Source of the DNA: a virus
Lineage: Duplodnaviria > Heunggongvirae > Uroviricota > Caudoviricetes
IMG/VR virus record: IMGVR_UViG_2534682161_000025
Direction: 5' to 3' (one strand)
Length of the DNA: 40,833 bases
Part shown: one piece after another, positions 8,871 to 9,167 of the stretch
How positions within the stretch are numbered: position 1 is the first letter of the stretch
Layout of the letters: each line of letters starts with the position of its first letter
Notes under the pieces: model-generated
Database searches by the model: none
Told to the model about the DNA's origin: nothing
The model's input: only the letters and a program-made list of their open reading frames with translations
Made by a program: the position numbers and the translations under genes

Positions 8871-8890
8871 TACTGTATAAACATACAGTT
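8871..8890. promoter_or_regulatory. LexA (SOS) box
   Basis: TACTGTATAAACATACAGTT matches consensus TACTGTATATATATACAGTA at 17 of 20 positions, CTGT-N8-ACAG core intact; ends 20 bp upstream of the ATG at 8910. Confidence 0.65.
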
Positions 8891-8909
8891 ATTGCATGGA
8901 GAAGATAAG

Positions 8910-9167
8910 ATGCAGCAGTATCACTATCCACTGGAAGAGGGATTTACCGAAAGGATTCACACGCCGGGAGGCGTCAGGTCACTGGTGGAAGGATCGCACT
9001 TGATGAAATTACTCCGGGATCTCGATAAGGATGGATTTAATGTCGATGGCCCACTTGCCGAACTGACTGCACTGATTAACTACGTCACCAGCTCACAGAT
9101 GTCTATGCAGGATCTGCAAACACATCTCGACTATTGTGCCGAACAACTACGAAAACAAACCACATAA
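8910..9167 (+). CDS. Small hypothetical protein (85 aa); moron on opposite strand inside the structural block, behind a LexA box
   Basis: ATG at 8910 with GGAG SD 8 nt upstream; no recognisable domain. Confidence 0.55.
   Translation: MQQYHYPLEEGFTERIHTPGGVRSLVEGSHLMKLLRDLDKDGFNVDGPLAELTALINYVTSSQMSMQDLQTHLDYCAEQLRKQTT

Follow-up and report, generated by a model that had tools for sequence, protein, structure and literature searches.

The 40,833-bp stretch of viral DNA analyzed here (the window) contains, between the minus-strand genes for the tailspike and the ejection proteins, a plus-strand gene of 85 codons, ant, and a LexA box just upstream of this gene (Table 1). The DNA around ant matches that of phiV10, TL-2011b, vB_EcoP_PAS61, ZX5, and phiv142-3 at 95 to 97%, all of which are epsilon15-like podoviruses of the genus Uetakevirus. 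At one end of the window, the host genes yfgH/yfgI mark the prophage-host junction and are followed by the Uetakevirus att core ATTGAGTGGGAATGATT (att sequence from PMC9782041), and at the far end, an integrase gene runs off the window. In between lie the lysis genes, the gene for an O-antigen acyltransferase with an IS2 insertion, the structural block, a gene for tRNA-Arg, and the immunity region. The host junction, the att core, the lysis, structural, and immunity genes, and the far-end integrase gene together support that the window represents one nearly complete prophage. Based on this gene content and the nucleotide matches, we identify the window as an epsilon15-like (Uetakevirus, phiV10-type) E. 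coli prophage.

IS2 (~4090-5420; orfA/orfB, 4105-5378) interrupts the O-antigen acyltransferase gene oac (3228-6423). NZ_CP169309, the complete genome closest to the window, has an intact oac, and an IS2 instead lies within its large ejection-protein gene. With IS2 in oac, serotype conversion by the window prophage has probably been lost, while its virion genes appear intact.

Table 1. Coordinates of the ant locus and of related features of the prophage in the window
Feature	Position	Strand	Basis or remark
Host genes yfgH/yfgI	1-1071		Prophage-host junction
Uetakevirus att core ATTGAGTGGGAATGATT	1162-1178		att sequence from PMC9782041
Tailspike gene (751 aa)	6459-8714	-	ORF list
Probable Rep operator, 17-bp inverted repeat ATTACC-N5-GGTGAT	8818-8834	none	Motif over-representation; half-site bases invariant in 10 relatives
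Putative ant promoter: -35 TGGATA (8848-8853), 17-bp spacer, -10 TACTGT (8871-8876)	8848-8876	+	Read by eye
LexA (SOS) box TACTGTATAAACATACAGTT	8871-8890	none	Consensus and matrix scan; alignment with relatives
Shine-Dalgarno sequence GGAGAAG	8898-8904	+	Sequence; GGAG invariant in 10/10 relatives
ant, gene for 85-aa antirepressor, ortholog of SPC32H_020	8910-9167	+	PDB, PHROGs, pairwise identity, gene order, dN/dS
Predicted terminator, GC-rich hairpin GGCCGC-GAAA-GCGGCC	9173-9190	T-run on -	Between the convergent ant and 46-aa genes
46-aa membrane protein gene	9210-9350	-	ORF list
Ejection/internal protein genes	9360-11834, 11840-13642	-	ORF list
Operator-motif places	3176-3192, 8818-8834, 25428-25444, 28575-28609, 31617-31695, 33649-33665, 34034-34050, 34746-34824	none	Motif scan
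Operator-motif cluster flanking rep (span 34034-34824)	34034-34050, 34746-34762, 34808-34824	none	Motif scan
rep, gene for 194-aa prophage repressor, inferred Ant target	34105-34689	+	PDB match, Pfam, identity to Rep proteins
Integrase gene	39583-40833		Runs off the far end of the window

The ant frame extends over 85 codons from an ATG, which is invariant across 10 aligned phages and is preceded by a Shine-Dalgarno sequence, to a TAA. An in-frame TTG at 8892 was rejected as the start; it has no Shine-Dalgarno sequence, and the SPC32H annotation starts elsewhere. The encoded protein is identical to Ant of the Salmonella phage SPC32H at 75 of 84 residues (89%; pairwise E = 3e-58). A comparison of the two genes gave dS = 1.69, dN = 0.078, and dN/dS = 0.046, which supports that ant is a protein-coding gene under strong constraint (purifying selection). 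Thus, the 85-aa plus-strand gene opposed to the tailspike and ejection-protein genes, as described in an earlier reading made from the sequence alone (the sequence-only reading), is borne out by the open reading frames, the Shine-Dalgarno sequence, and the dN/dS value.

That reading had also proposed a database search of the protein. In the PDB, this search returned a single match, chain E of 5D50 ("Anti-repressor protein"; E = 5e-48), i.e., SPC32H Ant. The PDB entries for the SPC32H Ant/Rep switch are 5D50 and 5D4Z. In PHROGs, the protein matched phrog_450 ("unknown function"; E = 1.6e-47), and the C-terminal ~50 residues alone matched phrog_1760 (E = 5e-7), pointing to a shared Ant-like C-terminal module. 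The Pfam scan at E ≤ 1 returned nothing but a sub-threshold DUF724 match, with no Bro-N, ANT, or KilA domain, the NCBIfam scan returned no relevant family, and DinI/Tum homology was found in neither of these two scans. Among the four databases, only PHROGs and PDB identified the protein.

Using tblastn, we found Ant in 35 phage records from phages of Escherichia, Salmonella, Enterobacter, and Klebsiella. The SPC32H and SPC32N records annotate the matching gene as ant, and in the 9 of the 35 records in which the position was checked, the gene is next to a tail-fibre or tailspike gene. The gene order oac, tsp, ant, 46-aa integral membrane protein gene, SPC32H_018, and SPC32H_017 is identical in the window and SPC32H (SPC32H_017-022). 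Judged by identity and gene order, the 85-aa gene is ant of an epsilon15-like E. coli prophage and the E. coli counterpart of SPC32H ant. The label "moron" given to it in the sequence-only reading is a misnomer for what appears to be a core gene of the lysis-lysogeny switch, with ant in 35 phage records and its position checked in 9.

The LexA box TACTGTATAAACATACAGTT matches the consensus TACTGT(AT)4ACAGTA at 17 of 20 positions. It deviates at positions 10, 12, and 20, and the CTGT and ACAG arms are both intact. No other site in the window has three or fewer mismatches to the consensus, and 100 dinucleotide shuffles of the window contained none. We also scored the window with an approximate LexA matrix built from 19 E. 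coli SOS boxes (Lewis 1994; Fernandez de Henestrosa 2000). On this matrix, TACTGTATAAACATACAGTT scores 25.9 bits and outranks 18 of the 19 boxes used for training. The runner-up in the window reaches 10.9 bits, and the highest score seen across 200 shuffles was 22.2 bits. The CTGT-N8-ACAG sites at 21416 and 25958 have GC-rich spacers, poor flanks, and scores of ≤10.9 bits and were rejected as LexA boxes; all remaining matrix matches were likewise rejected because, at ≤10.9 bits, they score below every training site and below the mean shuffle maximum. The near-consensus box of the sequence-only reading therefore stands as the sole such site in the window, and it does lie just upstream of the gene, although the distance from its 3' end to the ant ATG is 19 nt rather than 20.

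We aligned the tailspike-ant intergenic regions of 10 phages. The LexA box occupies the same columns in all 10 regions, and the SPC32H box aligns base for base with that of the window. CTGT and ACAG are invariant in seven sequences, all from Escherichia, Salmonella, or Enterobacter phages, while the 8-bp center drifts; the exceptions are SPC32N and two Klebsiella phages. The conservation of the arms together with the variable spacer is the pattern expected from selection on the LexA contacts, and, by homology, LexA is predicted to bind this box. SPC32H and SPC32N differ at a single position across the 218-bp intergenic stretch, a C-to-A change in the ACAG arm, and the base that is mutated in SPC32N is conserved in the other nine of nine aligned sequences. 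In the 2013 work of Kim and Ryu, this change reportedly abolishes LexA control and makes Ant constitutive. In the two Klebsiella Uetakeviruses, the box upstream of ant has one degenerate arm, ATGT for CTGT (TATATGTATATATATACAGTA), and in this branch, the SOS response may control ant less tightly or in another way.

A scan for sigma-70 consensus promoters near the LexA box detected no plus-strand promoter at threshold. By eye, we read a putative ant promoter that scores 8/12 against the consensus, i.e., below the scan threshold; its CTGGATAG and TAC-TGT are conserved among the 10 aligned phages. With the promoter placed in this way, the start site and the -10 element would both lie under the LexA box. 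Together with the SPC32H precedent, this reading suggests that the LexA box overlaps the ant promoter. An alternative promoter, TTGATA(8867)-N17-TATTGC, was rejected because transcription would begin past the Shine-Dalgarno sequence. Downstream of ant, a hairpin with the T-run on the minus strand is predicted to be a terminator, and the epsilon15 record lists its counterpart as a rho-independent terminator.

The 12-bp palindrome GTGACATGTCAC occurs as three exact copies in the window (9191-9202, 26422-26433, and 28687-28698), located after the ant terminator hairpin, after a Gp49-family gene, and upstream of the small terminase gene, respectively. Allowing one mismatch, there are four copies against 0.15 expected. 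SPC32H shares the copy that follows ant.

The prophage repressor Rep matches SPC32H Rep (5d50_A) over residues 1-190 (E = 4e-42). The two proteins are 42% identical overall, with 54% identity in residues 1-70, 33% in residues 96-150, and 47% in residues 151-190, among which is the C-terminal Ant-binding domain; the N- and C-terminal parts are thus the best-conserved regions. The Rep proteins of phiV10, ZX5, and other phages share their entire sequence with window Rep (100% identity). Pfam detected only HTH_3/HTH_26-type domains in Rep and nothing in the other small ORFs near rep, and the S24 active-site motif G[DNE]SM is absent from all six frames of the window. From these matches, the layout of Rep is two HTH domains followed by a C-terminal tetramerization/Ant-binding region, with no S24 domain, in agreement with the sequence-only reading, which had recognized no such domain in its repressor candidate. 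According to PMC9986798, the C-terminal domain of Rep both tetramerizes Rep and binds Ant. All Uetakevirus records that yielded ant also contain Rep. With 42% identity overall and 47% in the C-terminal Ant-binding region, binding of window Rep by Ant is to be expected by homology rather than assured.

Inverted repeats of the ATTACC-N5-GGTAAT type are over-represented in the window: 31 strand matches were counted where 4.3 would be expected, and the count stayed below 31 in all 100 shuffles. The repeats are found at ~13 places, which are mostly intergenic and clustered around rep. Two copies in this cluster, at 34746-34762 and 34808-34824, bracket the TTGACA promoter of the early genes, and the motif clusters around rep in the same arrangement in SPC32H. 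Between the tailspike gene and ant, another copy precedes the LexA box by 36 bp, and the copy preceding gp19, the epsilon15 ortholog of ant, is annotated as "protein_bind: repressor" in the record of that phage. Based on these observations, the repeats are probably Rep operators distributed across the whole genome, and given the copy near the LexA box, LexA may not be the only regulator of ant.

We note that the copies upstream of ant and oac share a conserved palindrome, AAACCATATRTGGAT, ~25 bp upstream. We also note that the tRNA-Arg(TCT) gene (25766-25842) lies downstream of a TTGACA promoter that is overlapped by the operator-like site at 25428-25444; the ~320 bp of non-coding DNA between this promoter and the tRNA gene (region 25440-25842) gave no Rfam match.

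These data suggest the following sequence of events. In a lysogen, host LexA bound to its box over the ant promoter would silence ant. Upon DNA damage, RecA would become active, LexA would cleave itself, and ant would be transcribed. Ant would then bind Rep and, by the SPC32H precedent, take the DNA-binding tetramer apart, so that Rep would leave the ATTACC-N5-GGTAAT operators and the lytic genes would be turned on. Because Rep has no autocleavage domain, we propose that Ant is the sole link between the SOS response and induction.

In SPC32H, an Ant tetramer reportedly binds the C-terminal domains of Rep and splits the DNA-binding Rep tetramer into dimers. A LexA-controlled Ant that inactivates a non-cleavable Rep is said to have been published for this phage by Kim and Ryu in 2013 (J Virol 87:11775) and by Kim et al. 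in 2016 (PNAS 113:E2480). The same chain, from LexA self-cleavage through antirepressor synthesis to inhibition of the repressor by protein-protein contact, is outlined for SPC32H in PMC7380047. The E. coli Uetakevirus ZX5, which has the same Rep type as the window, is induced by mitomycin C (PMC9782041), and phiV10-species prophages are induced by a DNA-damaging microcin (bioRxiv 10.64898/2026.05.26.727859). We therefore consider it very likely that ant and its LexA operator form a switch that inactivates a non-cleavable Rep, as in SPC32H. The proposal in the sequence-only reading that a LexA-repressed antirepressor takes the place of repressor autocleavage is supported by the orthology to SPC32H Ant, the conserved box, and the Rep homolog.

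Alternatively, the LexA-controlled Ant ortholog may no longer act on the diverged phiV10-type Rep, or not on Rep alone, and may instead target a host factor or, in trans, the repressors of other Uetakeviruses resident in the cell; induction of the window prophage would then depend on something else. The 89% conservation of Ant between the SPC32H and phiV10 types, against 42% for Rep, is consistent with this possibility, as are the relatives with a second Ant-domain protein fused to Bro-N (Tyrion gp20 and the truncated phiV10 gp23) and the finding that the Bro-N antirepressor ORF4 of ZX5 shifts the lysis-lysogeny balance (PMC9782041). However, tblastn of the window detected no second Ant-domain gene, and neither another antirepressor among the ORFs examined nor an S24 motif in the six frames was found. 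In addition, the consistent pairing of Ant with Rep across Uetakevirus records with ant and the conservation of Rep, which is best in its N- and C-terminal regions, argue for Rep as the target, and we regard this alternative as very improbable.

The two other alternatives are weaker still. Being small, opposed to the structural genes around it, equipped with a separate promoter and terminator, and assigned to no Pfam or NCBIfam family, the gene could be a moron under LexA control whose product acts on the host in the SOS response, for example as a toxin or as a RecA modulator similar to DinI, and has no part in prophage induction; yet its ortholog was crystallized in complex with a phage repressor, Pfam at E ≤ 1 returned no DinI/Tum or other match except the sub-threshold DUF724, and the gene is present at this position genus-wide, unlike sporadic morons, making such a function highly improbable. 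Just as little speaks for a LexA box that is non-functional or secondary, with ant controlled mainly by Rep through the upstream ATTACC-N5-GGTGAT: the operator-like site is conserved and no strong consensus promoter overlaps the box, but the box outscores 18 of the 19 SOS boxes of the matrix, its arms are conserved while its spacer drifts, and the single box change in SPC32N accompanies a reportedly changed phenotype.

Within the preferred reading of a LexA-controlled Ant that inactivates Rep, we tentatively put forward two extensions, both of which are possible but on balance doubtful. First, Ant could act in trans throughout the genus and cross-induce co-resident Uetakevirus prophages with divergent Rep proteins. 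Second, ant could be under dual control by LexA and Rep, which would result in a positive-feedback, all-or-none induction switch. These suggestions are based on the 89% conservation of Ant against 42% for Rep and on the invariant operator half-sites upstream of ant, respectively.

The SOS-Ant-Rep system has already been characterized genetically and structurally in SPC32H, a point missed in the sequence-only reading, and the window adds no new mechanism. The ant region is present in 533 of 5,426 complete E. coli genomes (about 10%), and ant is labeled "hypothetical protein" in RefSeq and most phage records; the value of the identification therefore lies mainly in annotation. The 2022 study of ZX5, whose Rep is identical to that of the window, describes a Bro-N antirepressor only and mentions neither LexA nor SPC32H (PMC9782041). 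As an SOS-controlled gene, ant would explain how phiV10-type prophages are induced by DNA-damaging drugs and bacteriocins despite a non-cleavable repressor. Some of these prophages are O-antigen-converting phages of O157 and other STEC.

An antirepressor gene between the ejection and tailspike genes is also known from P22, in which the immI region (mnt-arc-ant), between gene 16/sieA and the tailspike gene 9, encodes an antirepressor that binds the prophage repressor. Like ant in the window, immI lies away from the main immunity region. However, P22 Ant is a large, unrelated protein and is controlled by the phage proteins Mnt and Arc rather than by LexA. Moreover, P22 C2 is still cleaved through RecA, and P22 ant mutants stay SOS-inducible (PMC7380047).

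The sequence-only reading had likened the locus to 186 Tum and to the Gifsy prophages, and this likeness holds for the logic but not for the proteins. In 186 Tum, Fels-2 Tum, the Gifsy-1/2/3 antirepressors (Shearwin 1998; Lemire 2011, PMC3121763), and N15 AntC, as proposed for ant, LexA acts through its box to repress the gene for a small antirepressor, which disables a non-cleavable repressor by protein contact, and trans-acting cross-talk between prophages is possible. In contrast, no sequence relationship of these proteins to the 85-aa Ant, which belongs to the SPC32H Ant family, was detected in Pfam, PHROGs, or NCBIfam; the phages are of other types (P2-like, lambdoid, and N15) than the window prophage; and the binding mode differs, in that SPC32H-type Ant dismantles the Rep tetramer via the C-terminal domain of Rep.

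Relatedness in sequence extends instead to a group of Bro-N proteins. The last ~80 residues of Tyrion gp20, a Bro-N protein of an Enterobacter phage (118-822 of its segment), are 38% identical to the whole of Ant (E = 1e-19). The C-terminal part of gp20 matches phrog_450, and the group includes phrog_1760 and phrog_130. In some relatives, such Bro-N/Ant-like fusions of 190 to 235 aa are encoded just downstream of the small ant, while the window is without one. In phiV10 gp23 (147-731 of its segment), the C-terminal Ant-like part is truncated.

The closest counterpart is the Ant/Rep system of SPC32H. The host differs, Salmonella for SPC32H and E. coli for the window, and the window Rep is of another sequence type, the phiV10 Rep, which is 42% identical to that of SPC32H. 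Smaller differences are the spacer of the box, ATAAACAT in the window and ATGTTTAT in SPC32H, and the length of Ant, 85 and 86 residues, respectively. The two loci share the orthologous Ant (89%), the position of the LexA box, the gene order from oac and tsp through ant and the membrane protein gene to the ejection genes, a Rep homolog with HTH domains and without S24, and the same ATTACC-N5-GGTAAT motif around rep and upstream of ant. In every feature of the SPC32H Ant/Rep switch that can be examined in sequence, the locus agrees with it.
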